NCBI GenBank assembly: GCA_031290885.1
Contig: JAISLQ010000072.1
Span: 1,790-65,789, forward strand
Origin: Acidaminococcales bacterium
GTDB lineage: Bacteria; Bacillota; Negativicutes; Acidaminococcales; JAISLQ01
Direction of reading: 5' to 3'
DNA length: 64,000 nucleotides
In this document: positions 42,923-63,120 of the stretch, in pieces
How positions within the stretch are numbered: the stretch's first letter is position 1
How the letters are laid out: every line of letters starts with the position of its first letter
Made by a program: the position numbers and the translations under genes
Notes under the pieces: generated by a model
The model's database searches: none
Told to the model about the DNA's origin: nothing
What the model saw: only the letters and a program-made list of their open reading frames with translations

Positions 42923-45900
42923 CTATGCGTTGGCCAAACGCTTGTATGTTTCAAGGCGCAGCTTGGCATCGTTTTCCGTTTTCTGAAAAAGCGCTTCCGC
43001 CTGCATAGGATATTGCTGCAAAAGCGAGGAATATCTGACTTCGCCCATGAGAAAATCGCGGAAATTGGCGGTTGGCTCTTTGGAGTCAAGGACAAAGGGA
43101 TTTTTGCCTTCGTCCGCCAAAGCGGGATTGTATCGGTACATAGCCCAATAACCGCAGTCAACGGCCCGTTTGGCTTCCAACTGGCTTTTGCCCATGCCGT
43201 CCCTCAAGCCGTGATTGATACAAGGGGCGTAGGCGATGACAAGCGAGGGGCCGCGGTACGCCTCGGCTTCGCGGATCGCTTTCAGCGTCTGGGCTTTATC
43301 CGCGCCCATGGAAATTTGCGCTACATAGACATAGCCGTAGCTAATGGCCATCATGCCGAGATCTTTTTTGCGGGTGCGCTTGCCGCTGGCGGCAAATTTG
43401 GCGATCGCGGCGGCCGGCGTGGCTTTTGACGACTGCCCGCCGGTATTTGAATAAACTTCCGTATCGAATACAAGGACATTGACGTCCTCGCCGGAGGCAA
43501 GCACGTGATCAAGGCCGCCGTAGCCGATGTCGTAGGCCCAGCCATCGCCGCCGAATATCCATTGCGATCTCTTCACAAGATAATCACGGCCTTCGTATAT
43601 CTCGTTGAGCAGTTTGTCGCCGCCTCTTTCCTTTTCCAAAAGGCTGATCAATTTTTCGGCCCGTTCGTGCGTTCCCGCGCTCTCATCCTTTTTTTCCAGC
43701 CATTCGGCAAGGGCGGCTTTAAGTTCCCCCGCCGCGCCGGGCAGCGCTTTTTCAACTTTTAAAGTCAAGAGGCCGCGAACTTGCGTTGCGCCCGTATACA
43801 TGCCGAGGCCAAATTCGGCGTTGTCTTCAAAGAGCGAATTTGCCCAGGCCGGGCCGCGCCCGCGATGGTTGACGGTATAGGGCATGGAAGGCGCGCTGGC
43901 GCCCCAAATCGAAGAACAGCCGGTGGCGTTGCTTATAACCATACGGTCGCCGAAAAGCTGGGTAACCAGTTTGGCGTAGGGCGTTTCGCCGCAGCCGGCG
44001 CAAGCGCCGGAAAATTCCAGCAAGGGCGTTTCAAATTGCACGCCTTTGACGGTTGACGTATTCATGGGGTTTGGCTTGGGCGCAAGGCTTCTGGAATAGT
44101 TCCAGGCATCGGCCTTGTCCAATTGGCTCTCCAGCGGCTTCATGACCAGCGCCTTTTCCTTGGATGGGCAAACTTGCGCGCAATTGCCGCAGCCGGTACA
44201 ATCCAGCACTGATATTACTATGCTGAAATTAAGGCCTTTAGCGCCGACGGCCGGTTTTGAGCGGAAAACATCGGGGGCTTTGGCGGCTTCGCCGGCATCG
44301 GAAAGGGCAGGGCGCACGGCGGCGTGGGGGCAGACAAAAGCGCATTGATTGCACTGGATGCATTTGTCCGGCTGCCATTCCGGCACGTCAACGGCTATGC
44401 CGCGCTTTTCATAGGCAGAAGTCCCAACGGGGAAGGTGCCGTCTTCCGCGCCGTCAAAAATGCTGACCGGCAACAAATCGCCTTCCATCTTGTTGACGGG
44501 GACAAGCAGCCGCTCGATAAAAGCGGGGACTGCTGCCCCGCCGGCCTTTTCCTCGTCCTGCGCGCGCTTCCAGTCCGCCGGCGCGTCTACCTTTGATATG
44601 GCGTCAATGCCCCGGTCGATCGCGGCGTAGTTCATGTCAAGCACGGCTTGCCCCTTGAGGCCGTAAGATTCATCGACCGCTTCTTTCAGATACTTAACGG
44701 CGTCGCCAAGCGGTATGATGTCGGCCAGTTTGAAGAAAGCGGCCTGCATGATCATATTGATGCGCCCGCCGAGGCCCAATTGGGCGGCAATGCCTATGGC
44801 GTCAATAATGTAGAAATTAATCTCGTTTTCGGCAATATAGCGCTTCACTTTGGCCGGAAGGCGCTGGCCGGCTTCTTCCGGGCGCCAGAGGCAATTCAGG
44901 AGGAAAACCCCTTTTTTCTTCAACCCGTTCAATATGTCATACTGATTAATGTAAGATTGTTTGTGGCAGGCGATGAAGTCGGCCTTTTCAATAAGGTACG
45001 GCTGCTTGATCGGGCTGCTGCCGAATCTTAAATGCGACACGGTGATGCCGCCGGACTTTTTGGAATCGTAAAAGAAATACCCTTGGGCGTTCATGTCGGT
45101 GTGGTCGCCGATAATTTTAATGGCGCTCTTGTTGGCGCCGACCGTGCCGTCGGAGCCAAGCCCCCAGAACTTGCAGTTTTTGGTGCCGGGGGCGGTAGCG
45201 TCGATATCTTCGCCCGGGGCGAGCGACAAATGGGTAACGTCGTCAACAATGCCGACGGTGAAGCCGTTCATCGGGTCGGGCTTTTTTAGTTCGTCAAATA
45301 TGCCGAGCACATGCGACGGTAAAAATTCTTTGGAACCTAACGCATAGCGTCCTCCCACAATGACCGGGCTCAAGCCGCAATTGTAAAAAGCGGCGCGCAC
45401 GTCGGTATAAAGCGGCTCGCCCACCGCGCCCGATTCTTTGGTGCGGTCAAGCACGGCTACTTTTTGCACGCTTTTCGGGATAGCCGCGAAAAAGTGTTTG
45501 ACCGAGAAAGGACGGAAAAGATGGACGTTGACCATGCCGACCTTTTCGCCTTTGCCGTTTAGATAATCAACCGCGCTCTCAATGGTTTCGCAGCCGGAGC
45601 CAATGGCGACGACAATCCGTTCGGCGTCCGGCGCGCCGTAATAATTGAACGGTTTGTAATCTTTTCCGGTCAGCTTGTTGATCGCCCGCATGTTCTTTTC
45701 CACGATGTCCGGCAAGGCCATATAAAATTTATTGATAGACTCGCGCATCTGAAAATATATATCGGAGTTTTGCGCCGTGCCGCGCATAACCGGCCGGTTG
45801 GGGCTGAGCGCGCGGCTGCGGAAAGCCGCGAGGGCTTTGTAGTCGATGATCTTTGCCAGATCGTCGTAATCCAGCAGCTTTATTTTCTGCACTTCGTGCG

Positions 45901-46426
45901 AAGTGCGGAAACCGTCAAAAAAATTAAGAAAAGGCAAACGGCCTTCAATGGCCGACAAATGCGCCACCGCGCTCAGATCCATCACTTCCTGTACGCTGCT
46001 TTCGGCCAGAAGGGCAAAGCCTGTCTGTCGCGTGGCCATAACGTCCTGATGATCGCCGAAGATACTGAGCGCGTTCGCCGCCAAAGCGCGCGCCGAAACG
46101 TGAAATACTGCGGGCAACAATTCGCCCGCGATTTTATACATATCGGGTATCATAAGCAGCAGGCCTTGCGAGGCGGTATAAGTGGACGTCAACGCGCCTG
46201 ATTGCAAAGAACCGTGCACCGCGCCGACCGCGCCGCCTTCCGACTGCATTTCGACGACCTTCACTTTTTGCCCGAAAATATTGGTTTTTCCCTCTGCCGA
46301 CCATTCGTCGACCGCTTCCGCCATGGGCGACGACGGCGTGATCGGAAAAATGGCCGCCACTTCGGTAAAGGCATATGACGTGTATGCCGCCGCAGTATTT
46401 CCATCCATAGTTTTGGTTTTTGCCAT
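42923..46426 (-). CDS. nifJ: pyruvate:ferredoxin (flavodoxin) oxidoreductase
   Basis: 1167 aa single-chain PFOR. Two ferredoxin-type CxxCxxCxxxCP motifs (CIQCNQCAFVCP, CTGCGNCAQVCP) and a TPP-binding GDGWAYDIG motif. Confidence 0.95.
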   Translation of the reverse strand: MAKTKTMDGNTAAAYTSYAFTEVAAIFPITPSSPMAEAVDEWSAEGKTNIFGQKVKVVEMQSEGGAVGAVHGSLQSGALTSTYTASQGLLLMIPDMYKIAGELLPAVFHVSARALAANALSIFGDHQDVMATRQTGFALLAESSVQEVMDLSAVAHLSAIEGRLPFLNFFDGFRTSHEVQKIKLLDYDDLAKIIDYKALAAFRSRALSPNRPVMRGTAQNSDIYFQMRESINKFYMALPDIVEKNMRAINKLTGKDYKPFNYYGAPDAERIVVAIGSGCETIESAVDYLNGKGEKVGMVNVHLFRPFSVKHFFAAIPKSVQKVAVLDRTKESGAVGEPLYTDVRAAFYNCGLSPVIVGGRYALGSKEFLPSHVLGIFDELKKPDPMNGFTVGIVDDVTHLSLAPGEDIDATAPGTKNCKFWGLGSDGTVGANKSAIKIIGDHTDMNAQGYFFYDSKKSGGITVSHLRFGSSPIKQPYLIEKADFIACHKQSYINQYDILNGLKKKGVFLLNCLWRPEEAGQRLPAKVKRYIAENEINFYIIDAIGIAAQLGLGGRINMIMQAAFFKLADIIPLGDAVKYLKEAVDESYGLKGQAVLDMNYAAIDRGIDAISKVDAPADWKRAQDEEKAGGAAVPAFIERLLVPVNKMEGDLLPVSIFDGAEDGTFPVGTSAYEKRGIAVDVPEWQPDKCIQCNQCAFVCPHAAVRPALSDAGEAAKAPDVFRSKPAVGAKGLNFSIVISVLDCTGCGNCAQVCPSKEKALVMKPLESQLDKADAWNYSRSLAPKPNPMNTSTVKGVQFETPLLEFSGACAGCGETPYAKLVTQLFGDRMVISNATGCSSIWGASAPSMPYTVNHRGRGPAWANSLFEDNAEFGLGMYTGATQVRGLLTLKVEKALPGAAGELKAALAEWLEKKDESAGTHERAEKLISLLEKERGGDKLLNEIYEGRDYLVKRSQWIFGGDGWAYDIGYGGLDHVLASGEDVNVLVFDTEVYSNTGGQSSKATPAAAIAKFAASGKRTRKKDLGMMAISYGYVYVAQISMGADKAQTLKAIREAEAYRGPSLVIAYAPCINHGLRDGMGKSQLEAKRAVDCGYWAMYRYNPALADEGKNPFVLDSKEPTANFRDFLMGEVRYSSLLQQYPMQAEALFQKTENDAKLRLETYKRLANA

Positions 46427-46586
46427 TATAAAATCCCCCTAATAAAATTTATTTAAACTTTCTATGCAGCGCGGCAATAAATTATCCCGCAAACAAAGCA
46501 TCGCCCAACTGTTTGTCCTTGCAGGCAGTTTCCGCCGGCGGCGGCAACGCAATAACGTGAACTGACGGCAACAATTCTTATTGAAT

Positions 46587-46615
46587 ACTATACAATAAAA
46601 TCATCTTTTTGTAAA
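46587..46615 (-). promoter_or_regulatory. candidate PFOR promoter
   Basis: The minus strand reads TTTACA (46615-46610), 17 nt, TATAGT (46592-46587), about 160 nt upstream of the ATG. Confidence 0.4.
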
Positions 46616-46638
46616 ATCGCAAAAGTGCAAAAAGCAGG

Positions 46639-46672
46639 AAAAAAACGGCCGCCCCATTTTGAGGTAGCCGTT
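46639..46672 (-). terminator. probable terminator of the cysK-nitrogenase-like-ABC operon
   Basis: The minus strand shows an imperfect hairpin (AACGGCTACC...GGGCGGCCGTT) followed by T7 (the A-run 46639-46645 on the plus strand). Confidence 0.5.
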
Positions 46673-46731
46673 CGGCCCGTAAGCGTTGCCGGAAACATAA
46701 AAGTCATTGCCGGCCTTGCCAAAACAAGAAT

Positions 46732-47742
46732 TTATTTATATTTGGCGTCAATTCCGGATAAAATAAGGAAGCTGTTGTTATGCAGCGCGTCAACGTCAGT
46801 ATTTTTGTTGAGCATGCCGACGGCCTGCAGTTGCCGGGCGGTAATGCCAAAAGCATTGTAGGCGCCGGAAGACGACGGTATATAATTGAGCGTTTTGAGG
46901 ACGCCGGCGTTGGTTTGCGCGTCGCCCGGAACCCATTTGTTCTCCACCTGAATCCTGGCCGTTTCGTCCTGGTTGGCCTGTACCCAGGCGCTGGCCTTTT
47001 GCATGGCCCTTGTGTATTTGAGCGCCAGATCGGGGGAATCGGCGGCTATGCTGTCCCGCACATAGGCTACGCAGCAATACTGCGAATTGAAAGGGGCGTC
47101 TTTGGCGGAGTCAAACAGCGTTTTGTAGTTGTAAGCGTTGGCGGCGATGGTGGCAGTCGGCTCGTTCATGCCGATGGCGTCGACCGCGCCTTTGTCTAGG
47201 GCGATGGCCAGATCGGATGTGTTGTAGACGACAAATTCCACCTCGGAGTCTTCCATGCCTACGCCGACGCCGCCTGCGGCCAAGGAGCGTTTAGCAAAGA
47301 TGATCGGGCTGCTGCTCATGCTGGGCACGCCGATTTTTTTGCCTCTGAGCCCGGCGGCGCTAGTTATGCCGGAGTCGGCTTTTACCAATACTTTGTCGCA
47401 GCCCGTGTGCAATCCGGTGGTTATTTTGACGGGCAACCCGTTGGAAAGCGGCTGGATGGTACTGGCCAAAAGCGAAAAACCGGCTTCGGTCTGCCCGGAT
47501 GTTACGGCGTCAAAAGCCGTGCCGGGCGCAAGTTTGACTAATTCCACCTCAAGCCCTTCTTCTTGGAAAAACCCTTTTTCCACCGCCATGTGCAGCGGAG
47601 CTTCGCAAAGGCTGCCCGACCAGCCTATTTTCAGCGCCTTTGCGTGAACGGCGCCGACTGCGTAACCGGCGCAGAACATCGCTGTAACGGCGGCCGCGAA
47701 AACGATTTTGACGACGGAAGCACCCTTTTTGTTTTTTGTCAT
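46732..47742 (-). CDS. ABC transporter substrate-binding protein, NMT1/SsuA/TauA-like (NitT/TauT family)
   Basis: Signal peptide MTKNKKGASVVKIVFAAAVTAMFCAGYAVGAVHA. ATG 47742 follows AAGGAGGA; the longer ORF-track start was rejected. Same operon as NitT/TauT-type permease and ATPase genes. Confidence 0.85.
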   Translation of the reverse strand: MTKNKKGASVVKIVFAAAVTAMFCAGYAVGAVHAKALKIGWSGSLCEAPLHMAVEKGFFQEEGLEVELVKLAPGTAFDAVTSGQTEAGFSLLASTIQPLSNGLPVKITTGLHTGCDKVLVKADSGITSAAGLRGKKIGVPSMSSSPIIFAKRSLAAGGVGVGMEDSEVEFVVYNTSDLAIALDKGAVDAIGMNEPTATIAANAYNYKTLFDSAKDAPFNSQYCCVAYVRDSIAADSPDLALKYTRAMQKASAWVQANQDETARIQVENKWVPGDAQTNAGVLKTLNYIPSSSGAYNAFGITARQLQAVGMLNKNTDVDALHNNSFLILSGIDAKYK

Positions 47743-47758
47743 GGTAATCTCCTCCTTG

Positions 47759-48628
47759 TTATATATAGTATTGAATTTCTTCAACCTTGCCGGCAAAATC
47801 AAGCAATTGCAGTATTTTTGACCGCAACTCCAGAAAATAGGCGTGGCTGCGGGCACGCGGGCGTCCCATCTCCACTTCGATCACGCTTTCGATCCTGGCC
47901 GGGCGCGCTTTCATGACCAGTATGCGATCGCTCAGATAGATGGCCTCGTCCACGTCGTGCGTAACCATAATCATGGTAGTGCCGCGTTCCCGCCAAATCT
48001 TTATCAGTTCGTCCTGCATGTTCATGCGCGTGAAGGCGTCCAGCGCCCCAAACGGCTCGTCAAGGAGCAGCACGCTGGGGTGGTTAACCAAGGCCCTGGC
48101 CAGCGACGCCCTTTGCGCCATGCCGCCCGACAGTTGGTGGGGATAGACGTTTTCAAAACCGGCCAGCCCCACTAACCTGATGAATTCGCTTACATCTTTT
48201 TGTTTTTCTTCGTATATTTTGCGTACCCGCAAGCCGAAAGCGACATTTTCATAGACGGTAAGCCAAGGGAACAGGGTAGGGTCTTGAAAAACCAGGCCGC
48301 GTTCAAAACTCGGGCCGTCGATCGCCTCCCCGTCCAAAGAAACGCGTCCTTTGCTGGCCGGCAAAAGGCCGGCGACTATCCGCAAAAAGGTGGACTTGCC
48401 GCAGCCGGAAGGTCCGATAAGCGACACAAACTGCCCTGCTTCCACGTTTACATTGACATCGCTTAGAGCCGTTACCGTTTGCCCGTCCGGGCGGACGAAG
48501 ATTTTTTGCAGGTTTTCCGCGCTGATGCTGCCTGACCTTTTCTCCTCTGCCATTTGCCCATCCGGGCGGACAAAGATTTTTTGCAGGTCTTCCATGCTTG
48601 TGCCGCCTGACCTTTTCGCCGCTACCAT
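47759..48628 (-). CDS. ABC transporter ATP-binding protein (NitT/TauT family); start ambiguous because of a 5' tandem duplication
   Basis: Walker A GPSGCGKST, signature LSGGMAQR, Walker B LLLDEP. Possible starts are 48649, 48628 (first repeat copy) or 48553 (second copy). Confidence 0.88.
   Translation of the reverse strand: MVAAKRSGGTSMEDLQKIFVRPDGQMAEEKRSGSISAENLQKIFVRPDGQTVTALSDVNVNVEAGQFVSLIGPSGCGKSTFLRIVAGLLPASKGRVSLDGEAIDGPSFERGLVFQDPTLFPWLTVYENVAFGLRVRKIYEEKQKDVSEFIRLVGLAGFENVYPHQLSGGMAQRASLARALVNHPSVLLLDEPFGALDAFTRMNMQDELIKIWRERGTTMIMVTHDVDEAIYLSDRILVMKARPARIESVIEVEMGRPRARSHAYFLELRSKILQLLDFAGKVEEIQYYI
48478..48627. repeat. 2 x 75-bp tandem duplication covering the 5' end of the ABC ATPase gene
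   Basis: 48478-48552 and 48553-48627 match at about 64/75 positions by eye. They encode M-AEEKRSGSISAENLQKIFVRPDGQ and M-VAAKRSGGTSMEDLQKIFVRPDGQ. Confidence 0.85.
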
Positions 48629-49563
48629 TTGATTATCCCTTTCTGCCAACCCAAGGTTTTGTCGCGCACTTTGAACATGACAGTAATAATGAAGGAAAAA
48701 CTGACGGCGATGGTTATAAGCCCGGCATATACATTGGCGTAAGACATCATTTCCCTTTGCCAGTTGATGTACCAGCCTATGCCGAATTTCACCCCCATCA
48801 TTTCGGCGGTCATGAGCGTGAGGAAAGAGGCACAGGTTCCGTTGAAAATGCCTACGAAGATGCTGGGCATGGCGTCCGGCAGGGCGATCTTGAATATTTT
48901 CTGGAAGGAATTGGCGCCGAGCGTGCTGGCGACCTCAAAATAGGCGTTCTTTACATTGTAAATGCCGGAGCTGGTGAGTACGGTAGTGGGAAACCATACC
49001 GCCAAAGCGATCAGGAAGATGCTGGCCTGAAAGGAGTTGGCAAAACTGACGAGCGCGATAGGTATCCAGGCGGTGGAAGGGATGGGGCCGATCAACCGGA
49101 TCAAAGGGTGGATCCAATAACTCCATTGTTTGCTCCAACCGACCATGATGCCTGTCGCTATGCCGGTGCTGGCGCCGAGCACAAAGCCGATGAGCAAAAG
49201 CCGGAAAGAATAGGCGAGGCATTTAAGCAAAAACGCCCATTCCTCAACGAACACGCGCAATATCACGTCAATGGCCGGAAAGTAAATAGCCGGCAAAAGC
49301 ATGAGCTTGACGGTTATGACGTTGTAAAGGCAGACAAACAAGAGCGCCGCCCCGACAAATCGCGACTTGTAGGCGTATTTTTCGCCAAACTGCGGATTGA
49401 AGCGCGACAAAATTATGCTGATGACAGTTGCGGCGAGAATGACAAGCAGCAGTATTTTAAGGTATGGCAACTTGCCGTGCATGTATTTCGCGCTGTTGGG
49501 CACGCCGGCGTGTATGATTAGCGTCAGCGCCGCGCTCGCGGCGGGAATGAATTTAGCGTACAA
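48622..49563 (-). CDS. ABC transporter permease (NitT/TauT family)
   Basis: Polytopic membrane protein with a binding-protein-dependent transport signature region (FEVASTLGANSFQKIFKIALPDAMPSIF). Confidence 0.88.
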   Translation of the reverse strand: MYAKFIPAASAALTLIIHAGVPNSAKYMHGKLPYLKILLLVILAATVISIILSRFNPQFGEKYAYKSRFVGAALLFVCLYNVITVKLMLLPAIYFPAIDVILRVFVEEWAFLLKCLAYSFRLLLIGFVLGASTGIATGIMVGWSKQWSYWIHPLIRLIGPIPSTAWIPIALVSFANSFQASIFLIALAVWFPTTVLTSSGIYNVKNAYFEVASTLGANSFQKIFKIALPDAMPSIFVGIFNGTCASFLTLMTAEMMGVKFGIGWYINWQREMMSYANVYAGLITIAVSFSFIITVMFKVRDKTLGWQKGIIKW

Positions 49564-49575
49564 GCCGCTTCCTCC

Positions 49576-49941
49576 TTATTGTTGTTTGCCTGTCTGCCGC
49601 AGCGCAAGGTACTTGGCCAGCCGGCGCAGGTTTTGGTCGATCCGGCCTTCCTGCTCAAATACCAGCAGCCCGGCCGCCTCCAACATGGCCCTGGCCCCCG
49701 GGCCGACCTTTGCCGCCAGCAGGGCGCCGCAGTCGGCAAAGATGTCCATGCGCTCCGACAGGTTCTCATGTCCGCAATCGGAGCAAAATTGATTGAAGGC
49801 GCGTTCTTCGGCCAATTCGTAAGCGCCGCCGGGTTTTAAGTCAAAGATGAAAAAGGACGATGCCTGGCCAAAGTGCCTGTTTATCTCCAAACCGTTTGAA
49901 CTGGCGGCGGCGATACGCCAACTTATTTGCATATTCATCAT
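49576..49941 (-). CDS. NifX/NifB-C-terminal family (dinitrogenase iron-molybdenum cofactor-binding domain) protein
   Basis: 121 aa. RIAAASSNGLEINRHFGQASSFFIFDL ... CGALLAAKVGPGARAMLEAAGLLVFE matches the NifX/NifY/NifB-C domain pattern as recalled. Confidence 0.8.
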   Translation of the reverse strand: MMNMQISWRIAAASSNGLEINRHFGQASSFFIFDLKPGGAYELAEERAFNQFCSDCGHENLSERMDIFADCGALLAAKVGPGARAMLEAAGLLVFEQEGRIDQNLRRLAKYLALRQTGKQQ

Positions 49942-50306
49942 ATCCCCTCGCCGTCAAGCCCCGTAAAATCGGAAAATCTTTGTTTTTCAATGCGTTCTAT
50001 GCGTACAACGATGCCATTGTTTACCACTATGACGATCTGTCCGTACTCCAAACCGCGAAACTGCTGCTGTATTTTCCGGCAAATTCCGGCATGGTTGGGA
50101 AAAACTTCATTTTTGTCCTTTTCTTTGGCTTTGCTTTGCTCGCCAATGCGGATCTTTTCATTGCGTTCAATTTGAATAAGGCGAAAATTCTGGCTTATCA
50201 GCGTAATATGACCAAAATTAATCGTTTGCGCCATGTCAATTATTTGATCCATTAATTCCGGATTGACAGGCGCATCTTCGTTAACTCCCGGTTTCCCCCG
50301 ATTCAC
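49938..50306 (-). CDS. tandem YezD/DUF2292-like small-domain protein
   Basis: Two copies of the DUF2292-like motif: FGHITLISQNFRLIQIERNEKIRI and YGQIVIVVNNGIVVRIERIEKQRF. There is a 4-nt overlap with the NifX-like gene. The family call is from motif recall only. Confidence 0.6.
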   Translation of the reverse strand: MNRGKPGVNEDAPVNPELMDQIIDMAQTINFGHITLISQNFRLIQIERNEKIRIGEQSKAKEKDKNEVFPNHAGICRKIQQQFRGLEYGQIVIVVNNGIVVRIERIEKQRFSDFTGLDGEGI

Positions 50307-50327
50307 CGAAAATCCCCCTTTTAACCC

Positions 50328-51839
50328 TCATTTTCCTGCCGTGTCCTTGATATAGGCGGATGGGTCTTTTGCGTACCATTCGCTGCGATAAGGCGCGGGA
50401 CGGTATTTTTGCATGTTCCGGTTGAACTGGTTGTTGGCGATTATGCGGCGGAGACGGCGCGCAATCTCGAAAACGCCCGAATAGCCTATATAATTGTAGC
50501 CGGGCCCAAAAAGCGGCAATACCGGCAGGCCGTGTTTGGCGGTTATGTTGCCGCTGCCCGTGTGGATGACCAGCAAATCCGGTTTCAGCCTTTTGACGAT
50601 GTTTGCCTGTTCAAAAGGATGTTGGGAGGCAATATTGATGTAAATGTTCTCTATGCCGGGCAGCCCTTCCATTACCGGCCATGCGAACTCATCGATGTGG
50701 TGGCCTTTGAAGCCGGCTATTTCCATGCCGAGATCGGTCAAGACCTCGGCGGTAACGAAAATGCGGACCTCGCCGCCGCTGACATAGGCGCGCTTGCCTT
50801 TTAAAACCGCCCGGAAACCTTCCAACGCCCGCTCAAGTTCTTCTTCCTCCTTTTGAATTAAAAGCCGCGCCCGTTCGGCTACGCCAAAATGATCCGCTAT
50901 TTTCAACAGCCAGCGCGCGGTGGCTTTTTTGCCGATTGGCATGGTGTCGATGATGTAAGGTATGTTAAATTCTTTATGTATATATTTAAGGTAATAGTCG
51001 TCATGCGTCCCGCAAACGCTGATGTTAAGCGCGGCGTCAAGGGCGGCGCGAAAGTCGTCCGGCCGGGAAAAACAGGGCAGGAAGTTAACTTTTAGCTCCA
51101 AAGCGGAAAGCAGCCTTTTTATCTCCAACTCGTCCGCCCTGCTCATGGAGCCAACATTAAAGACGTTTACCGTCCTTCCTTTCTCATATTCCCACAACTT
51201 GTCGGACAGTTCGTTTTCCGTAAAGTATTTGTCGCGTTCCCGGTATTTGGTGAGTTTTTTCAATACGCCGTTATATACGGCGTCATAAGCCGTGGCCATC
51301 AGCTTGGTCTTGAAGCCCTCGCAGTTCACCGGCACAAGTTCGGCGGCGGTTTCCCGCTCAAGATTTTCCAATATGCTGTCAACGTCGTCCCCGATCAGGG
51401 CAGGCACGCAGGAACTGGCCACTATGATCGCCTCGGGGCGAAATTCCCTGTCGGCGTACAGCACGGCGGCCCGAAGTTTCTTCTCGCCGCCTTCGATGAC
51501 ATCTGATTCGTCAAGGTTGGTGCTTAACCAGACTATCCCGCCGGCGGCCGGGTCGCGCAATTTCTTGAAATTCTTGTTGGTCCCTATATTGGCCGTGCTG
51601 CAAAAACCGCAACCGACCGGACCGTGCATAATTACCACGGCATTGCGCAATGAGTTCAATATGCCGAGGCTCAAAGTAAACTGGCAGCCGTGCGCCTGCG
51701 AAAAACTGCGGTTGGCGGCGTACAGGCAGCCGTTGTCCTTTTGCCCGAGGCGGCTTTGCAACTGAGCGCAAGTGCCGCAAAAGGCGATGCCTGCTTTCAG
51801 GCGCTCTTCCCGCGCCGGGGCGGAGTTTTCTATGATCAT
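50328..51839 (-). CDS. nitrogenase component 1 alpha (NifD/NifE)-like subunit of a nitrogenase-like enzyme
   Basis: AHGCQF, MHGPVGCG and SSCVPALIGDD align with the NifD P-cluster cysteine motifs. LNISVCGTHDDYYLKYIHKEFNIPY aligns with NifD [25 protein letters not shown]. ATG 51839 follows AGGAGG. Confidence 0.85.
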   Translation of the reverse strand: MIIENSAPAREERLKAGIAFCGTCAQLQSRLGQKDNGCLYAANRSFSQAHGCQFTLSLGILNSLRNAVVIMHGPVGCGFCSTANIGTNKNFKKLRDPAAGGIVWLSTNLDESDVIEGGEKKLRAAVLYADREFRPEAIIVASSCVPALIGDDVDSILENLERETAAELVPVNCEGFKTKLMATAYDAVYNGVLKKLTKYRERDKYFTENELSDKLWEYEKGRTVNVFNVGSMSRADELEIKRLLSALELKVNFLPCFSRPDDFRAALDAALNISVCGTHDDYYLKYIHKEFNIPYIIDTMPIGKKATARWLLKIADHFGVAERARLLIQKEEEELERALEGFRAVLKGKRAYVSGGEVRIFVTAEVLTDLGMEIAGFKGHHIDEFAWPVMEGLPGIENIYINIASQHPFEQANIVKRLKPDLLVIHTGSGNITAKHGLPVLPLFGPGYNYIGYSGVFEIARRLRRIIANNQFNRNMQKYRPAPYRSEWYAKDPSAYIKDTAGK

Positions 51840-51849
51840 GATTTCCTCC

Positions 51850-53190
51850 TTACCGGCCTGCCACAAGCAAGCCGAAAGTATCTTCGGCAAACGCCAGCCC
51901 GCCGGTTGTGCCGGCGTAGCCGCGATTGAAGACTACGCGGTTGGTTACGGGAAAGGACACCGTCAGAAGCGGCGCCGACAGTTCTTCGGCAAGATCGCGC
52001 TCAAATACGCTGCCAAACACTACGGCGGGGCTGAAAGAATCGTAGTAGCGGTGATTGCGGTTCCTTTCCCAACTGCCGCTCAAATGCCGGCGCACCGAGG
52101 CGGCATTGGGGTCGTAGCGTACTTGGGGCTTTACGCCCGATGCATAATTTTCAAACCTCTTGCTTAAAAGCTCTTGCTGGCGTTCGGTCAGTTCATCGGT
52201 TACAACGGTAAGATGCGGCAGCCAGCCTAATTCGTCGGCGATAAATTCCGTGATGGCGGGCGCGTAATTGGCATCGGCAACGACCAGGCCGTAACGCTGG
52301 AAATCAATGTCGTTATAACTGTCGGAAATGCGCTCAAAATAATCAAAATATACAGCCTGTTCGCTTTTCAGGGCTTTGCCGATAAATTTCCCCTCTATGC
52401 CCAAATGCCCGCCGACAAGATGCAGGAACCTTTCCGTTTGCAGATAGCCTATCGGCAGGGGAACCCTGACACAGGGGATGTGATGTGCGCTTTCATAAGC
52501 GGCGGCCGCGAGCGGGGCATATACGTCCGACAATACTACGTTGAGTGCCGCATCGCCGGAATTTTTAATGTCGGCAAGCGTTTCCCCTTCTCCGATCAGA
52601 GTGTTGGCTTCAAGGCCGATAAGGTTCAGCAGGCGCTTTATTTCCCGGAGGTTGCCTTTGTAGAAAACGTCCCCGCCCGGCATGAGGCCGAAAACATTGA
52701 CCTTATTGGCTTTTTTTCGTTTGCGGGGCGTTACGTATTCTTTGGCCAGGGCCTCCAGCACAACGTCATAGCCGTAAGCGGAATTGCCCTTGAAGCCGGG
52801 AGTGGATACGGATATTACCGGTTTCAGGGCGTTTTTGAATTTGCCCGCGACCGATTGCGCGTCATCGCCGATCATTTCCACCATGCAGCCGGACAATACC
52901 ACATAAAGGTCGCCGTCCATGATTTCAAGGGTAGTCGCTATCTGCTCGCGCAGCCTTTCCTCGCCGCCGAACACTATCTCCTTTTCGACTACGTTGCTGC
53001 TGGGCGTCGAGGTTGCGCCGCAGTAGCCGCCGCCCAAATAGCCGGCGCCGGAGTTCATGCCCACATAAATGTTATAGGCGCAGCCGGTGGAAGCATGGAC
53101 GATCGGCACCGTGCGCGGCAGCGCCCTGATCATTCCCAATGCGCCGCCGAGCGGACAGCCAAAGCGTGGCCTGTCGATAATCGCGCTCAT
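51850..53190 (-). CDS. nitrogenase component 1 beta (NifK/NifN)-like subunit of a nitrogenase-like enzyme
   Basis: FGCPLGGALGMIRAL...VHASTGCAYN...LSGCMVEMIGDD aligns with the NifK motifs ACQPLGAV...HGSQGCVAYF...C153 region. Confidence 0.85.
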   Translation of the reverse strand: MSAIIDRPRFGCPLGGALGMIRALPRTVPIVHASTGCAYNIYVGMNSGAGYLGGGYCGATSTPSSNVVEKEIVFGGEERLREQIATTLEIMDGDLYVVLSGCMVEMIGDDAQSVAGKFKNALKPVISVSTPGFKGNSAYGYDVVLEALAKEYVTPRKRKKANKVNVFGLMPGGDVFYKGNLREIKRLLNLIGLEANTLIGEGETLADIKNSGDAALNVVLSDVYAPLAAAAYESAHHIPCVRVPLPIGYLQTERFLHLVGGHLGIEGKFIGKALKSEQAVYFDYFERISDSYNDIDFQRYGLVVADANYAPAITEFIADELGWLPHLTVVTDELTERQQELLSKRFENYASGVKPQVRYDPNAASVRRHLSGSWERNRNHRYYDSFSPAVVFGSVFERDLAEELSAPLLTVSFPVTNRVVFNRGYAGTTGGLAFAEDTFGLLVAGR

Positions 53191-53305
53191 GAAAAATACC
53201 CCCTTAACAATACTTATGCCGCTTACCGTTTAAGACATGGACAAGGCTTGCGATATAGCGTCTCGCCCTGCGAGAGGCGAAAAGCGCGCGGACACGGAAG
53301 GCGCA

Positions 53306-53325
53306 GCGCGGCCAATTGGCCGCGC
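53306..53325. other. 20-bp perfect GC-rich palindrome in the 173-nt spacer after the nifH-like gene
   Basis: GCGCGGCCAATTGGCCGCGC. A second small hairpin, TCTCGC-CCT-GCGAGA, lies at 53261-53275. Confidence 0.5.
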
Positions 53326-53363
53326 AGTCGCCGCTAATTTGGCCAGGGGACATATTGCGCCAC

Positions 53364-54224
<861 letters not shown>

Positions 54225-54331
54225 TCAAACTCATTCCTTTTCCGTTAAAATTTCGCTGCCCTAATCCGTCATGCGGTTCCCCGGTTAAAAACCAACTCGC
54301 AAAGCTGCTTTGGTTTAGCCGGGGAAAAGCG

Positions 54332-55300
54332 TCAGTACCAGATGTTGCTCTTTTCGCGCGGCAAATCTTTGAACAAGGCGGTAGACAGATAACGCTCGCC
54401 GGTGTCGGGCAAAATGGCGACGACCGTTTTGCCCGCGTTTTCCGATCTTCTGGCGACTTTAGCGGCGGCAAAAGCCGCCGCGCCCGAAGATATGCCGACA
54501 AGCAGCCCTTCTTCCCTCGCCAGCACGCGCGCCGTGTCTATAGCCTCTTCGTTGCGCACCCTGTATATCTCATCGACAGCGCCAAGATCCAAAACATCAG
54601 GCACGAAACCCGCGCCAATGCCTTGGATAACATGCGGGCCCGCTTTCCCGCCGGACAGTACGGGCGAGGCATCGGGCTCTACCGCCACAATCTTTATTGC
54701 CGGGTTTTTCCCTTTAAGTGCCTGGCTGATGCCGGTTACGGTCCCGCCCGTGCCGACGCCGGCAACGACCACGTCGACTTTGCCGCCGGTGGCCTCCCAG
54801 ATCTCCTCGCCGGTAGTCCGCCTGTGTATTTCAGGGTTGGCGGGGTTGGCGAACTGCTGCAAAATGACGCTGCCGGGAATCTGCGTGTTAAGTTCTTCCG
54901 CCTTGCTTATCGCGCCTTTCATTCCTTCCGCGCCGGGCGTCAGAACAAGCTCGGCGCCTAATGCCAAAAGCAGTGTCCGGCGCTCTATGCTCATGGAATC
55001 GGGCATCGTAACGATCAGCTTATATCCCTTGGCCGCCGCCACAAAGGCCAGCCCCACGCCGGTGTTGCCGCTGCTTGGCTCAATAAGCGCGGAATCTTTA
55101 GTCAAAATACCCCTTTTTTCCGCATCTTCGATCATCGCGTTGGCAATCCGGTCTTTTACGCTGGAGAGGGGATTGAAATACTCCAATTTCAGCAAAAGGT
55201 CGCCATCTGCGATTTTGGCCAGCCGGCGAAAAGCGTGCGGGCGCAAAATGGGCGTATTGCCGATAAGCTCCGTCAGATTGTCGACGATAATATTTGCCAT
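54332..55300 (-). CDS. cysK: cysteine synthase A (O-acetylserine sulfhydrylase)
   Basis: PLP-lysine motif NPLSSVKDR and SSGNTG. ATG 55300 ([18 protein letters not shown]) follows AAGGAGA; the ORF-track start at 55393 is too long. Confidence 0.92.
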
Positions 55301-55404
55301 TGCGACATCTCCTTGAATTGTTTTGCAAACCGTCGGGGAATGCTGCGCGAGGAAAATCGTCCGCCAGTTCGCGTCCGCTGGCAAGGGAAACAATTGCCTA
55401 ATAC

Positions 55405-55437
55405 ATATTAATCATATAGTTTATATATGATTAATAT
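55405..55437. promoter_or_regulatory. candidate operator: 14-bp perfect inverted repeat with 5-bp spacer
   Basis: ATATTAATCATATA (55405-55418), gttta, TATATGATTAATAT (55424-55437). It sits immediately downstream of the -10 box of the cysK promoter. Confidence 0.45.
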
Positions 55438-55439
55438 AG

Positions 55440-55468
55440 ACTATAATACAAAATTGTCCGCTTGTCAA
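55440..55468 (-). promoter_or_regulatory. near-consensus promoter of the cysK / nitrogenase-like operon
   Basis: The minus strand reads TTGACA (55468-55463), 17 nt, TATAGT (55445-55440). Confidence 0.55.
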
Positions 55469-55590
55469 CAAAGCATCTTAAATGGATTTTTATGCATAGG
55501 CTGTTGAGCCTGATTTTTTGTTGGATTGGCCGGATGCGCCTTTAATTTATCTAACTGCTGATTAATTGCCGCCCCTTCCACAAAATGGCA

Positions 55591-55599
55591 TGATATAAT
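55591..55599 (+). promoter_or_regulatory. possible extended -10 promoter element for hsdM
   Basis: TGATATAAT lies about 85 nt upstream of the hsdM ATG. No good -35 box was seen. Confidence 0.3.
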
Positions 55600-55681
55600 A
55601 ATCAAAAAGGGAAACGGACGCAAAACGAATGGGCGAAAGCCGCAGGCGCTCAAACTTTCAAACAAGGAGCGGGAACAATTA

Positions 55682-57253
55682 ATGGCTGACAATCGAAAAG
55701 AAGCAGAACGCACGGAACTTCACCGTGTCATATGGAGCATAGCCAACGACCTGCGCGGTTCTGTGGATGGGTGGGATTTTAAGCAATACGTCCTCGGCAT
55801 ATTGTTCTACCGATATATCTCGGAGAATTTGTCGGGGTACATCAATGCGGGGGAGCGCGAAGCGGGCAACCCCTCTTTTGAGTATGCCAAGCTGTCCGAT
55901 GGCGATGCCGAATCAGCCCGTGAGGATTTAGTCGCCACGAAAGGTTTCTTTATCCTGCCGTCTGAACTGTTTGAAAACCTGCGGGCAAAGGCGGCAAACG
56001 ACCCCGACCTCAATGTAACGCTCGAAAACATCTTCAAGCATATAGAAGCATCGGCACAGGGAACGCCGAGTGAAGCAAACTTCAAAGGCTTGTTTGATGA
56101 CATCGATGTTAACAGCAATAAACTCGGTGGCTCGGTCGCCAAACGAAACGAGCAAATCGTCAAACTATTGAATGGCATCGGTGAAATGAAGCTTGGCGAT
56201 TACAAAGAGAACACAATCGACCTTTTCGGCGACGCTTACGAGTACCTTATGGGCATGTACGCAAGCAATGCGGGCAAAAGCGGCGGCGAATATTACACGC
56301 CGCAAGAAGTTTCCGAACTGCTCACCCTCCTGACGATAGTTGGCAAAACCGTTGTGAACAAAGTATATGACCCGGCTTGCGGTTCGGGCTCGCTGCTCTT
56401 GAAATTTGCCAAAATACTCGGCAAAGATAACGTCCGCAACGGCTTTTTCGGGCAGGAAATCAATCTGACGACTTACAATCTCTGTCGTATCAATATGTTC
56501 CTGCATGACATAGACTATGACAAATTCGATATAGCGCACGGCGACACAATGCTTGAACCGCAGCATTGGGATGACGAGCCGTTTGAGGCTATCGTATCGA
56601 ATCCGCCGTACTCCCACACTTGGGCGGGCGACGGCAATCCGTTACTTATCAACGACCCGCGTTTTTCCCCTGCCGGAGTGCTTGCGCCCAAGAGCAAAGA
56701 GGACTTCGCGTTTATAATGCACGGGCTTTCGTGGCTTGCGACGAATGGCACGGCGGCGTATGTCGTGTTTCCCGGCATACTCTATCGCGGCGGCGCGGAA
56801 CAGAAAATCCGCAAATACCTCATAGACAACAACTTCGTGGACTGCGTGATTCAACTGCCGGACAACCTCTTTTTTGGCACGAGCATAGCGACGTGCATAA
56901 TGGTACTCCGAAAAGCGAAATCCGATAACTCGACCCTGTTCATTGACGCGAGCCGCGAGTTCGTAAAGGTAACGAACAGCAACAAACTGGCCGCTGACAA
57001 CATTGATAAAATCGTCGCGGCATACACGACACGCGGGAGTATGGACTACTTTACCCGCCTTGTTCCGAATGGTGAAATTGCAGAGCAGAGTTATAACCTT
57101 TCCGTATCGACTTACGTCACGCAAGAGGATAAGCGCGAGATTATCGACATAACCGAGTTGAACGCCGAAATTGAGCGTATAGTCGCCCGCGAAGACGTTC
57201 TGCGCCGTGAAATTGCTGCAATTGTCGCGGATATTGAGGGAGGCGCAAGATAA
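55682..57253 (+). CDS. hsdM: type I restriction-modification system methyltransferase subunit HsdM
   Basis: AdoMet motif DPACGSGSLL, catalytic NPPY (VSNPPYS), and an HsdM N-terminal domain. Confidence 0.93.
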   Translation: MADNRKEAERTELHRVIWSIANDLRGSVDGWDFKQYVLGILFYRYISENLSGYINAGEREAGNPSFEYAKLSDGDAESAREDLVATKGFFILPSELFENLRAKAANDPDLNVTLENIFKHIEASAQGTPSEANFKGLFDDIDVNSNKLGGSVAKRNEQIVKLLNGIGEMKLGDYKENTIDLFGDAYEYLMGMYASNAGKSGGEYYTPQEVSELLTLLTIVGKTVVNKVYDPACGSGSLLLKFAKILGKDNVRNGFFGQEINLTTYNLCRINMFLHDIDYDKFDIAHGDTMLEPQHWDDEPFEAIVSNPPYSHTWAGDGNPLLINDPRFSPAGVLAPKSKEDFAFIMHGLSWLATNGTAAYVVFPGILYRGGAEQKIRKYLIDNNFVDCVIQLPDNLFFGTSIATCIMVLRKAKSDNSTLFIDASREFVKVTNSNKLAADNIDKIVAAYTTRGSMDYFTRLVPNGEIAEQSYNLSVSTYVTQEDKREIIDITELNAEIERIVAREDVLRREIAAIVADIEGGAR

Positions 57254-58350
57254 TGGAAAACAGCTTGACGCTCTATGCGCCTTTTGTAAAAGAAATAAAA
57301 GACCTTATCTATCGCCGCCAGTATGAGGCGATGAATAAGGTCAACGCCGAACTCATACAGCTTTACTGGGAAATCGGCGAGGAAATTTACGCCCAACAGC
57401 AGGAAAAGGGTTGGGGGAAGTCTGTCGTTGAGGTTTTGTCGAAAGAACTTCAAAAAGAATTTCCGGGAGTGTCGGGATTTTCGGCGCGTAATCTCTGGCG
57501 TATGCGTAATTTCTATGTCGAATACGCGCAAACCGAAAAGCTGCCACCATTGGTTGCAGAAATTCAAAAGCCAATTCTGCCACCGTTGGTGGCAGAAATA
57601 AGCTGGTCGAAAAACTGCGCAATTATGGAAAAATGCAAAGACCATAGTGAGCGCGAGTTTTATATCAAAATGACGCGGCGTTACGGTTGGATAAAGGACG
57701 TGCTGATAAACAATATCGAGAACAAGGCGTTTGAGCGGTATCTCGCCAATCAAACGAACTTTGACGAAACCGTACCCGAAAAGTACAGGCTTCAAGCGAA
57801 ACTCGCCGTCAAGGACGATTACAACTTCGACTTCATTGAGATGGGTATCGAACACAGCGAGGCGGAGGTAGAAGCGGGGATTGTCAACAACATTCGGGCG
57901 TTCCTTGCCGAAATGGGCGGCGACTTTGCCTTTATTGGCAACCAATACCGCATTGACGTGGACGACGACGATTACTATATAGACCTGCTCCTGTTCCACA
58001 GGCGGCTGCGCTCTCTTATTGCGATTGAACTCAAAATCGGCGAGTTTATCCCCGAATGCGTCGGGAAAAATGCAGTGCTTGATGAACTCGTTAAACTGCC
58101 TGACGAGAACCCGTCTATCGGGATTATCATCTGCAAGAGCAAGAAACGGACGCGGGTGGAGTATACGCTGAAAACCGCCAACAAACCAATCGGCGTGGCG
58201 ACGTACTCATTCACCGACAGCTTGCCGGAGGATTTGCGAAACCTGTTGCCCTCTCCGGACGAGATAGCGAGCATTGTCGCAGAGTTTGACAATGCGACAA
58301 ACGAACTCACGGAGAACGCAGGGGGTAAAGAAAATGGCGAGATTAGCTGA
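57253..58350 (+). CDS. YhcG-like PDDEXK nuclease domain protein (DUF1016) embedded in the type I R-M operon
   Basis: N-terminal DUF1016 helices (LIQLYWEIGEEI...GFSARNLWRMRNFY). C-terminal nuclease core (DLLLFHRRLRSLIAIELKIGEF...PSIGIIICK...NKPIGVATY). Its start overlaps the hsdM stop (TAATG). Confidence 0.85.
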   Translation: MENSLTLYAPFVKEIKDLIYRRQYEAMNKVNAELIQLYWEIGEEIYAQQQEKGWGKSVVEVLSKELQKEFPGVSGFSARNLWRMRNFYVEYAQTEKLPPLVAEIQKPILPPLVAEISWSKNCAIMEKCKDHSEREFYIKMTRRYGWIKDVLINNIENKAFERYLANQTNFDETVPEKYRLQAKLAVKDDYNFDFIEMGIEHSEAEVEAGIVNNIRAFLAEMGGDFAFIGNQYRIDVDDDDYYIDLLLFHRRLRSLIAIELKIGEFIPECVGKNAVLDELVKLPDENPSIGIIICKSKKRTRVEYTLKTANKPIGVATYSFTDSLPEDLRNLLPSPDEIASIVAEFDNATNELTENAGGKENGEIS

Positions 58351-58659
58351 TATTCTTTCAAAGCCATCATCTGCGGAATTCGTTCAGATAGACGGCTTTA
58401 TAAAGTTGACGCCGAGTGCCATATAATACCCCGTCAATTTTCCGACGATGGTTATAGGTTGTTCAGCGAGTTAAGCGAAATTGTACACGGCGATTATGAT
58501 GAAGATGTGGCGATTCAGAAATTCGAGCCGTTGCATACGTTGGTAGTCGGTATACTTGAAAACATAAAAGCTGACGATAAGCTAAATAAAGCCATCGGCA
58601 TATTGGGTTGGAACACCCAAAACGGAGGAACAGTCCAATGTCTAAACTCGACGCGCTGA
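58334..58659 (+). pseudogene. possible frameshifted small ORF between yhcG-like gene and hsdS
   Basis: ATG 58334 gives MARLADILSKPSSAEFVQIDGFIKLTPSAI*. A second frame continues AECHIIPRQFSDDGYRLFSELSEIVHGDYDEDVAIQKFEPLH...AIGILGWN. No family was recognised. Confidence 0.25.
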
Positions 58660-62872: not shown

Positions 62873-63120
62873 TTATTGTTCGGCCTTACGAGCTTTGCTT
62901 TGACGGGTTGCGGAAACAATCCGTTGCTGCGGCTGGAACTCACGGGTGCGCAAAACGCATCGATGACGGCGGCATTTCCTTGATGGCTTTATGAAGTTAC
63001 TCGAGCAAATTGAACCACAAGCAGTAATCGCGCACGGCGCGACGAACGATTGGATGCTTCCGCCACTATTCGCCATAGACGCAAATATGGTCCGCTTTGA
63101 AAGATATTTCTAAAACTCGC

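Follow-up and report, generated by a model that had tools for sequence, protein, structure and literature searches.

Mar and Isr are the only sulfur-type nitrogenase-like (NFL) enzymes with known reactions: the methylthio-alkane reductase Mar of Rhodospirillum rubrum yields methanethiol, and the isethionate reductase Isr of Rhodobacter capsulatus yields sulfite. Reviews and preprints associate Group IV NFL enzymes with sulfur genes and describe several of their clades as functionally uncharacterised. Reviews also expect Mar-like systems in Clostridia and Negativicutes and consider gene context of little help for the remaining Group IV clades. Here we analysed a 64,000-nucleotide stretch of the forward strand of an Acidaminococcales bacterium (GCA_031290885.1, contig JAISLQ010000072.1, positions 1,790-65,789), hereafter the window, which encodes an NFL enzyme between a cysteine synthase gene and the genes of an ATP-binding cassette (ABC) importer. 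The original prediction placed one minus-strand operon here, and its gene order was recovered: nine intact open reading frames (ORFs), all on the minus strand, lie in the 46637-55468 region and encode CysK, a NifH-type Fe protein, the K and D subunits, a tandem DUF2292 protein, a NifX-like protein and the permease, ATPase and binding protein of the importer. We propose, with a probability of about 65%, that the operon encodes a sulfur-acquisition NFL reductase of a Group IV clade distinct from Mar and Isr, based on its gene content, the conservation of its metal ligands, its clade position and the synteny of cysK, K and D. We found no published account of this cysK-K-D family, nor of its active-site signature or synteny.

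The two catalytic subunits are a NifK/MarK-like beta subunit (K, 446 aa, 51850-53190) and a NifD/MarD-like alpha subunit (D, 503 aa, 50328-51839), both matching PF00148. Among solved structures, the best match of D was R. rubrum MarD (2.6e-57, against 4e-28 for the best NifD) and that of K was MarK (9e-73, against 4e-18 for the best NifK). A fold search with an AlphaFold (AF2) model of D (mean predicted local distance difference test score, pLDDT, 71; predicted template modelling score, pTM, 0.73) also returned MarD first (9FMG_A, TM-scores 0.79/0.85, root-mean-square deviation 3.5 Å), with NifD at ~0.70/0.73. In the Mar structure, the P-cluster is held by MarD C66/C91/C158 and MarK C32/C56/C121, and the [Fe8S9C] cofactor by MarD C270 and H429, the histidine lying on loop I (PMC12552129). 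The alignment to MarD and MarK that had been recommended as a check located equivalents of all these ligands: the six P-cluster cysteines are D C52/C77/C144 and K C12/C37/C102, and D C276 and H426 stand for Cys270 and His429. The metal ligands of the D subunit are invariant in a 22-member family alignment.

By sequence, the D/K pair is thus a Group IV NFL enzyme, as predicted, with MarDK as its closest solved relative in both sequence and fold, and is not a dinitrogenase. For the dinitrogenases of Groups I-III, we considered the NifD and NifK profile cut-offs, residues Val70, Gln191 and His195, and a nifEN/nifB context. D scored 140 bits against the NifD profile (cut-off 654) and K 85 bits against the nifK profile (cut-off 427), equivalents of Gln191 and His195 are absent, and there is no nifENB context. 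Indeed, the alpha-subunit segment said to lack these two residues, FKTKLMATAYDAV, aligns to MarD 194-HWSTGFD-200 and NifD 190-SQSLGHH-196. The predicted absence of nifE/N/B, nifI1/I2, nifV and regulator genes nearby also held, as tblastn found no nifB-like gene and Pfam scans of the other large ORFs of the window found no nifEN, nifI, nifV or regulator genes. The Nfa enzymes (Group IV-A) were compared indirectly, through the representative P0145, using the published NfaD signature Cys50/53/60/78/81/146/257 and the nfaBHDK order; in D only C52, C77, C80 and C144 fit, the cofactor cysteine is at position 276, and K precedes D.

The term "Mar-like" in the original prediction holds for a Group IV NFL enzyme in a sulfur context. 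It does not hold in the sense of a methylthio-alkane reductase orthologue, as D reaches only ~28-31% identity with Mar D subunits (28% with the MarD orthologue of Selenomonas ruminantium), falls in a separate clade and has exchanged the Mar active-site residues. According to the Mar literature, H194, W195, S196 and F199 are conserved in R. rubrum Mar and in Rhodopseudomonas palustris Mar1 and Mar2, and Arg428, which precedes the cofactor histidine in MarD, is conserved in nearly all Group IV enzymes. In D, the helix 194-HWSTGFD-200 of MarD has become 180-LMATAYD-186 (H194L, W195M, S196A and F199Y), and LMATAYD is invariant in the family. C73 and Q74, which the validated Mar enzymes likewise conserve, have become G and I, further replacements among active-site and channel residues are M70L, Y98N and I101T, Arg428 is deleted, and an insertion of ~20 residues precedes the cofactor cysteine. 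Most of the replaced side chains are smaller than those of MarD, which suggests that the active-site pocket of D may be roomier than that of Mar.

The phylogenetic placement called for by the original prediction puts D in a clade of its own rather than with Mar. The tree of D comprised 133 sequences: representatives of 50%-identity clusters obtained by exhaustive HMMER searching, family members, paralogues from related loci and R. rubrum MarD, the sequence of which was rebuilt from the PDB alignment. In this neighbour-joining tree on corrected p-distances, the family was monophyletic in 60/60 bootstraps, it grouped with a small set of rare metagenomic sisters in 52/60, and Mar sensu stricto was separate from it in 60/60. 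Window D did not cluster with R. rubrum MarD; their distance is 1.67, as large as that from D to the Isr-like clade, while a paralogue from Candidatus Clostridium eludens, one of the real Mar orthologues of Firmicutes, lies at 0.39 from MarD. An ad hoc grouping of "Mar plus Mar-like" sequences formed no clade in any bootstrap and was dropped, and the second D-K pairs of related loci are here compared with Mar by their shared residues only. In addition, true Mar or Mar/Nfa-like D-K pairs adjoin the K-D pair in several family loci. By these sequence comparisons, we classify the family as a Group IV clade of its own, a paralogue of Mar that is distinct from both Mar and Isr.

The gene neighbourhood is conserved across relatives. 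Scanning a collection of one genome per species (185,579 species), we found 93 relatives and kept 80 loci. These include another Acidaminococcales metagenome-assembled genome (MAG; L001, 93% identical), Massilibacillus (70%), many termite-gut Treponema/Spirochaetaceae, Synergistaceae, Ca. Adiutrix, Lachnospiraceae (Faecalicatena contorta, Mobilisporobacter), Oscillospiraceae, Sporobacter termitidis and Desulfitobacterium, and a protein search added Clostridium kluyveri, Oxobacter pfennigii and Anaerosinus massiliensis. By tblastn and ORF clustering, K immediately precedes D in 78/80 loci, and cysK lies on the same strand no more than 1.3 kb upstream of K in 55 of the 60 informative ones. It is immediately next to K in 29 loci, and in 17 a NifB-like gene stands between them. 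This NifB-like radical SAM gene (~300 aa without a NifX domain; TIGR01290, 255 bits) occurs somewhere in 35/80 loci. Among the 28 fully flanked loci, 21 encode a NifX-like protein, 22 an Fe protein and 12 the cognate ABC importer (≥50% identity for both permease and ATPase). Genes for PatB C-S lyase and for enzymes similar to cystathionine lyase/synthase also recur. A member of the sister clade keeps the K-D order without cysK, so the cysK linkage is specific to the cysK-K-D family. The conserved core of the family is cysK-(nifB-like)-K-D. The architecture had been thought unusual; cysK in first position, beta before alpha and a dedicated transporter are in fact the family norm, and the window departs from it in two respects, the lack of a nifB-like gene and the presence of the DUF2292 gene, the latter being found otherwise in L001, in a few Oscillospiraceae loci at a distance from K-D and in the Selenomonas Mar locus.

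Many of these loci carry a second D-K pair (L002, L003, L020, L026, L029, L039, L049, L060, L063, L064, L066, L070, L073 and L078). The second pairs have D before K, are 27-31% identical to window D, lie beside their own ABC ATPase and permease, and keep an (I/V)W(S/T)TGFD helix and the Arg-His motif; they sometimes share one Fe protein with the K-D pair. P0145, which bears the NfaD cysteine signature, groups with them, and "Nfa-like" enzymes may thus be sulfur-linked too. The C. eludens locus (L029) holds four D/K pairs in 16 kb. In termite Treponema (L007, L008 and L010), genes clustered on the other strand, ~0.1-10 kb beyond D in the downstream direction, encode three methyltransferases of the URO-D family (MtaA/MtsA-like), a corrinoid activase (RACo), a pair of NMT1 binding proteins and the permease and ATPase of an ABC transporter. 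This cluster is similar to the "type I Mlp gene clusters" for which a role in methyl-sulfur metabolism has been proposed (PMC10418091). At the end of the S. ruminantium Mar locus, too, there are genes for a corrinoid protein and an MtmB-like product.

The Fe protein (285 aa, 53364-54221), the predicted ATP-dependent reductase of the system, belongs to the canonical NifH lineage. It matches PF00142 (5e-127) and scores 456 bits against TIGR01287 (cut-off 394), which bears out the view that it is very close to true NifH; the Walker A motif GKGGIGKS and both [4Fe-4S] cysteines, noticed earlier, are readable in its translation. It is 76% identical to Clostridium pasteurianum NifH and scores 457 bits against it, as opposed to 287 against MarH. 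However, passing TIGR01287 marks the lineage of an Fe protein and not a role in N2 fixation. Indeed, S. ruminantium TAM6421 (L081, 10001-10858) encodes a NifH-type Fe protein, 82% identical to that of the window, together with a true Mar orthologue whose D subunit is 71% identical to R. rubrum MarD, and a NifH-type Fe protein can thus serve a partner that is not a nitrogenase. Family loci contain Fe proteins of two kinds, ~80% or ~51% identical to that of the window. Metagenomes abound in near relatives (81-85% identical), the named ones being mostly from rumen Selenomonas. As such Fe proteins pass the NifH cut-off, nifH surveys and automatic annotation would misread them as a sign of diazotrophy.

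The sulfur context that had been claimed for the operon is borne out by cysK, an OscA-like DUF2292 protein and a NitT/TauT-type importer. CysK (O-acetylserine sulfhydrylase A, 54332-55300; PF00291, 9e-75) scores 442 bits against TIGR01139, over the equivalog cut-off of 351, and is thus a cysteine synthase A. The small DUF2292/OscA-like protein (49938-50306) matches PF10055 in two tandem stretches (1e-18); it reaches 52 bits with the profile of the sulfur-starvation protein OscA (NF033785), under the cut-off of 85, and a structure search returned no solved relative. The NifX-like protein, a putative cofactor-binding protein (49576-49941), matches PF02579 only (2e-16) and has no radical SAM domain; the nifB profile was matched at positions 330-439 only. 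Profile searches identified the permease (48622-49563), of the NitT/TauT family, with orthologues 56-78% identical in family loci, and the ATPase (47759-48649). The last gene encodes an NMT1/SsuA-family substrate-binding lipoprotein (46732-47745). None of these reached a SsuABC or TauABC cut-off (SsuA_fam 99 bits against 163.5; TauB 231 against 357), so that by sequence the importer is assignable at the NitT/TauT family level only. The "Sao" names of the best NCBIfam transporter matches were not used, as they belong to a selenoprotein-associated system and the scores were under the cut-offs. The 5′ end of the ATPase gene carries a tandem duplication of 75 bp (48468-48631, 2.2 copies, 82% matches) at the permease/ATPase junction, which repeats a 25-residue N-terminal segment of the ATPase (…LQKIFVRPDGQ… twice). 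As homologues of this ATPase have ~260 aa, its true start may be an internal ATG near 48553.

The most economical reading of this context remains the one first put forward, namely that a substrate is imported, reduced and handed to CysK. The NitT/TauT-type importer would take up a polar sulfur compound. The Fe protein, reduced by ferredoxin or flavodoxin, would pass electrons with ATP hydrolysis within an H2/(KD)2 reductase, through a P-cluster where K and D meet to an [Fe8S9C] cofactor of the L-cluster type on D-Cys276 and D-His426, where a C-S bond, or possibly an S-O bond, of the substrate would be reductively cleaved. The sulfur product, most simply sulfide, would be converted into cysteine by the co-transcribed CysK. 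The NifX-like protein would carry the cofactor, while its NifB-type radical SAM maker would be encoded elsewhere in the genome, and the operon would probably be repressed through a palindrome at its promoter when sulfur is plentiful. A tblastn search of the 64 kb with the family NifB-like protein gave no nifB-like gene (best E = 2.9), and the window thus lacks a co-encoded radical SAM enzyme of the MarB type; the cofactor must then be made in trans. A NifB-like protein, P0458, is known from Acidaminococcales MAGs.

Sulfide is the simplest product given the near-obligate coupling to CysK, and not to a MetY-type enzyme that uses the methanethiol released by Mar, and we place it at slightly less than even odds. 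A broader and more tentative proposal is that the cysK-K-D family forms a third class of sulfur-acquiring NFL enzymes, with an [Fe8S9C] cofactor and an imported non-volatile substrate, for which a thiol, a sulfonate or a sulfur oxyanion are candidates, and with sulfide passed to CysK. If so, its chemistry and product would differ from those of Mar (methanethiol) and Isr (sulfite). The family is widespread in gut and termite anaerobes, which would otherwise be scored as diazotrophs from nifH.

Several points weigh against the proposed sulfur-acquisition reductase. We infer the identity of the cofactor, the substrate, the product, the regulation and the responsiveness to sulfur, and for the substrate, product and sulfur regulation we do so from gene context. 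CysK also condenses thiols, such as methanethiol, with O-acetylserine, so that the linkage to cysK is no proof of a sulfide product. The binding protein gives no clue to the ligand: it is under the SsuA and TauA cut-offs, and a PDB search gave weak THI5/ThiY-type and unnamed matches, with no close solved structure. The absence of a nifB-like gene from 64 kb also counts here, and the cofactor model fails if the genome has none. The model of D is only moderate, with low pLDDT at the cluster-binding loops. Finally, the tree was built by neighbour joining with 60 bootstraps on 50%-identity representatives without names, and as it does not include the published IV-D/IV-E reference sequences, it assigns the family no lettered subgroup.

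Among the other explanations, an isethionate-reductase-like route, in which an imported sulfonate would be reduced to sulfite and passed through a separate sulfite reductase to CysK, fits the NitT/TauT (taurine/sulfonate/nitrate) family of the transporter and the presence, in Isr loci too, of SsuCAB-type transport and cys genes beside an NFL enzyme. We nevertheless find it unlikely. IsrD retains a single P-cluster cysteine out of three and lacks both cofactor ligands, whereas window D keeps them all; the sequences with a single-Cys pattern form a different, large clade, and the window enzyme does not fall in Group IV-F. The operon does not contain a gene for a BciD-like IsrB radical SAM protein, and a sulfite reductase gene was found neither in the window nor in those recurrent gene clusters of the related loci that were annotated.

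A genuine Mar, converting dimethyl sulfide (DMS), ethyl methyl sulfide (EMS) or methylthioethanol into methanethiol and a hydrocarbon, is a quite improbable alternative, even though MarDK is the best solved match in both sequence and fold, the metal ligands are identical, and a review considers Mar systems probable in Clostridia and Negativicutes. The true Mar locus of S. ruminantium also has similar accessory genes (NifX, DUF2292 and an NMT1-type ABC transporter). Against this stand the separation of the clades (60/60), the replacement of H194, W195, S196 and F199, and the identity of ~28-31% for D compared with ~71% between real Firmicute Mar orthologues and R. rubrum MarD. True Mar or Mar-like D-K pairs co-occur in the same loci, and the linked assimilation enzyme is CysK and not a MetY-type sulfhydrylase. 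Volatile thioethers, which diffuse freely, would also need no dedicated ABC importer.

It is very improbable that K-D is instead a NifEN-like scaffold or maturase for the L-type cluster of another NFL enzyme, with sulfur supplied through cysK. The best NCBIfam match of D is nifE (170 bits, compared with 140-159 for the NifD profiles), and in many loci K-D is flanked by a NifB-like gene on one side and, on the other, by a second D-K pair with which it shares one Fe protein. NifN keeps one P-cluster cysteine, and NifEN bears a [4Fe-4S] cluster there; K, however, keeps all three cysteines. In addition, the literature reports that Mar works without NifEN, K-D stands alone here and in many other loci, accompanied by an importer of its own but by no further D-K pair, and an ABC importer specific to the family points to an enzyme that converts a substrate. 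Finally, a working nitrogenase, canonical or Nfa, is hardly credible. In its favour, the Fe protein passes the NifH cut-off and is 76% identical to C. pasteurianum NifH, the family is common in termite-gut bacteria and, according to the literature, N2-dependent growth seems to be sustained by Group IV-A Nfa enzymes although they lack the canonical residues. Against it, D and K score far under the NifD and NifK cut-offs, Gln191/His195 equivalents are absent, nifEN, nifV and nifI genes were not found in the window, P0145 (Cys52/59/77/80/145/256, against 53/60/78/81/146/257 in NfaD) falls in the Mar-like clade and not in the cysK-K-D family, and the near-obligate partner gene is cysK, not a nitrogen gene.

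We return to the sulfur-acquisition operon and its control elements. The predicted consensus promoter is the best site in 46300-55800: a sigma-70-type TTGACA-17-TATAGT on the minus strand (55440-55468), with 11/12 consensus positions. The terminator placed near 46640 is credible as well (46637-46672), consisting of a hairpin at 46672-46644 (-23.8 kcal/mol, z = -2.3) followed by U7, although a simple terminator scan did not list it. Just 3′ of the -10 box lies a perfect 12-bp inverted repeat, ATTAATCATATA-N5-TATATGATTAAT (55407-55435), which has one exact match in the window and 0 expected in shuffles. It overlaps the transcription start, also folds as the 5′ hairpin of the leader, and is probably a repressor operator. 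It was not found in the 80 related loci, the contig of the closest relative beginning inside cysK, and there is no regulator gene near it. A known leader RNA such as an S-box or T-box found no support: no Rfam family matched at gathering thresholds across the whole window, and a permissive search of 53150-55720 gave chance-level matches only. Our literature search returned no relevant sulfur-limitation expression data in Clostridia.

The spacers reported for the operon agree with the ORF coordinates: 110 nt between cysK and the nifH-like gene, 173 nt between the latter and K, gaps of 10 nt (K-D) and 21 nt (D-DUF2292), and a 4-nt overlap of the DUF2292 and NifX-like ORFs. In L001, the 93%-identical relative, the spacers corresponding to the two long ones measure 52 and 35 nt, and the long spacers that flank the nifH-like gene are clean, hairpin-rich, strain-specific insertions. 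The first, of ~62 nt, forms a hairpin after the cysK stop (54268-54329, minus strand), and the second, of ~141 nt, is a GC-rich structured segment after the nifH-like stop (53214-53354, minus strand), which holds the palindrome GCGGCCAATTGGCCGC and a 22-nt direct repeat. Both are absent from L001. An origin as repeat elements was rejected, the core of each being found only once in the window.

The window is chromosomal, with a division/cell-wall gene cluster, RNase J, FtsK and PFOR, and the suggestion of a diderm Firmicute host is confirmed by its match to an Acidaminococcales MAG contig (NifH P0271, 100% identical). The PFOR gene (42923-46426, 1167 aa) lies immediately downstream of the operon and has a promoter-like site of its own (46615-46587), as predicted. 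Its role as a dedicated source of reductant did not survive, as it lies beyond the operon terminator and the adjacency is not conserved in related loci. Just upstream of the operon, a type I restriction-modification system (55682-63804; hsdM, a YhcG/DUF1016 nuclease gene, hsdS and hsdR) is followed by a fragment of a TraG/VirD4-type coupling protein (191 aa), which suggests that a defence or mobile-element island borders the operon. Elsewhere, a gene of the PF06838 "Met_gamma_lyase" family (30142-31374, 573 bits) lies 15 kb from the operon, and Pfam gave no match at E≤1e-5 for two long ORFs, 13352-15940 on the minus strand (862 aa) and 31445-33367 on the plus strand (640 aa). Almost all genes are on the plus strand up to ~36 kb and on the minus strand from ~36 to 55.5 kb, and the cumulative GC skew rises and then flattens at ~36 kb.

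From a broader perspective, the family would add a further branch to a small enzyme class, and the strict cysK synteny, the co-evolving importer and the distinct active site together make a testable hypothesis on product and specificity. Cultured hosts include Clostridium kluyveri, Faecalicatena contorta, Sporobacter termitidis, Oxobacter pfennigii, Desulfitobacterium sp. Sab5 and Anaerosinus massiliensis. Being frequent in bacteria of the gut, the rumen and termites, the family is relevant to anaerobic sulfur cycling, and it also bears on how nitrogenase-type cofactors are tuned, since such a cofactor appears to act here on substrates other than N2.

Compared with Mar of R. rubrum (MarBHDK, Group IV-C; 9FMG and 9D9U), the family shares the three-component NifHDK-type architecture, the six P-cluster cysteines, the Cys and loop-I His for an [Fe8S9C]-type cofactor, a sulfur-assimilation context and NifB-like and NifX-like helpers (35/80 loci and 21/28 fully flanked loci, respectively). 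Mar differs in its HWSTGFD helix, its Arg428 and its C73/Q74/Y98, where the family has LMATAYD, no Arg428 and G/I/N. Mar is also linked to MetY, whereas the family shows a near-obligate linkage to cysK, with K before D and a dedicated ABC importer; and MarB is a NifB-type radical SAM enzyme, whereas the window has a NifX-like protein only. Isr of R. capsulatus (IsrBHDK, Group IV-F) is likewise an anaerobic, ATP-driven NFL enzyme that serves sulfur assimilation, and its genes are linked with those of a NitT/TauT-type ABC importer and of cysteine synthesis. However, IsrD has one cysteine at the P-cluster positions and no cofactor ligands (equivalents of Cys275/His442), a [4Fe-4S] cluster being predicted, and IsrB is a BciD-like radical SAM protein, while the helper in the window is of the NifB/NifX type and all ligands are present.

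Also comparable are Group IV paralogues, D/K pairs with full metal ligands and sulfur-gene neighbourhoods, namely R. palustris Mar2/NflDK3, R. rubrum NflDK and Heliophilum NflDK2-4. The literature on Mar2 indicates that such paralogues specialise in substrate. Identity to Mar1 is 52-65% for the R. palustris pairs Mar2 and NflDK3, and Mar2 keeps HWS..F, whereas the window family has diverged much further and shows a conserved synteny of its own. The Mar/Nfa-like "group IV-A" NFL genes beside type I Mlp corrinoid methyltransferase clusters (PMC10418091) are also accompanied by CysK, PatB and MetY-type genes, and some termite Treponema family loci adjoin URO-D/RACo methyltransferase genes as well. 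In those loci, however, our own tree indicates that it is the second D-K pairs, and not the cysK-linked K-D, that bear the Nfa/Mar-like signature, and unlike them, the window has no methyltransferase cluster.

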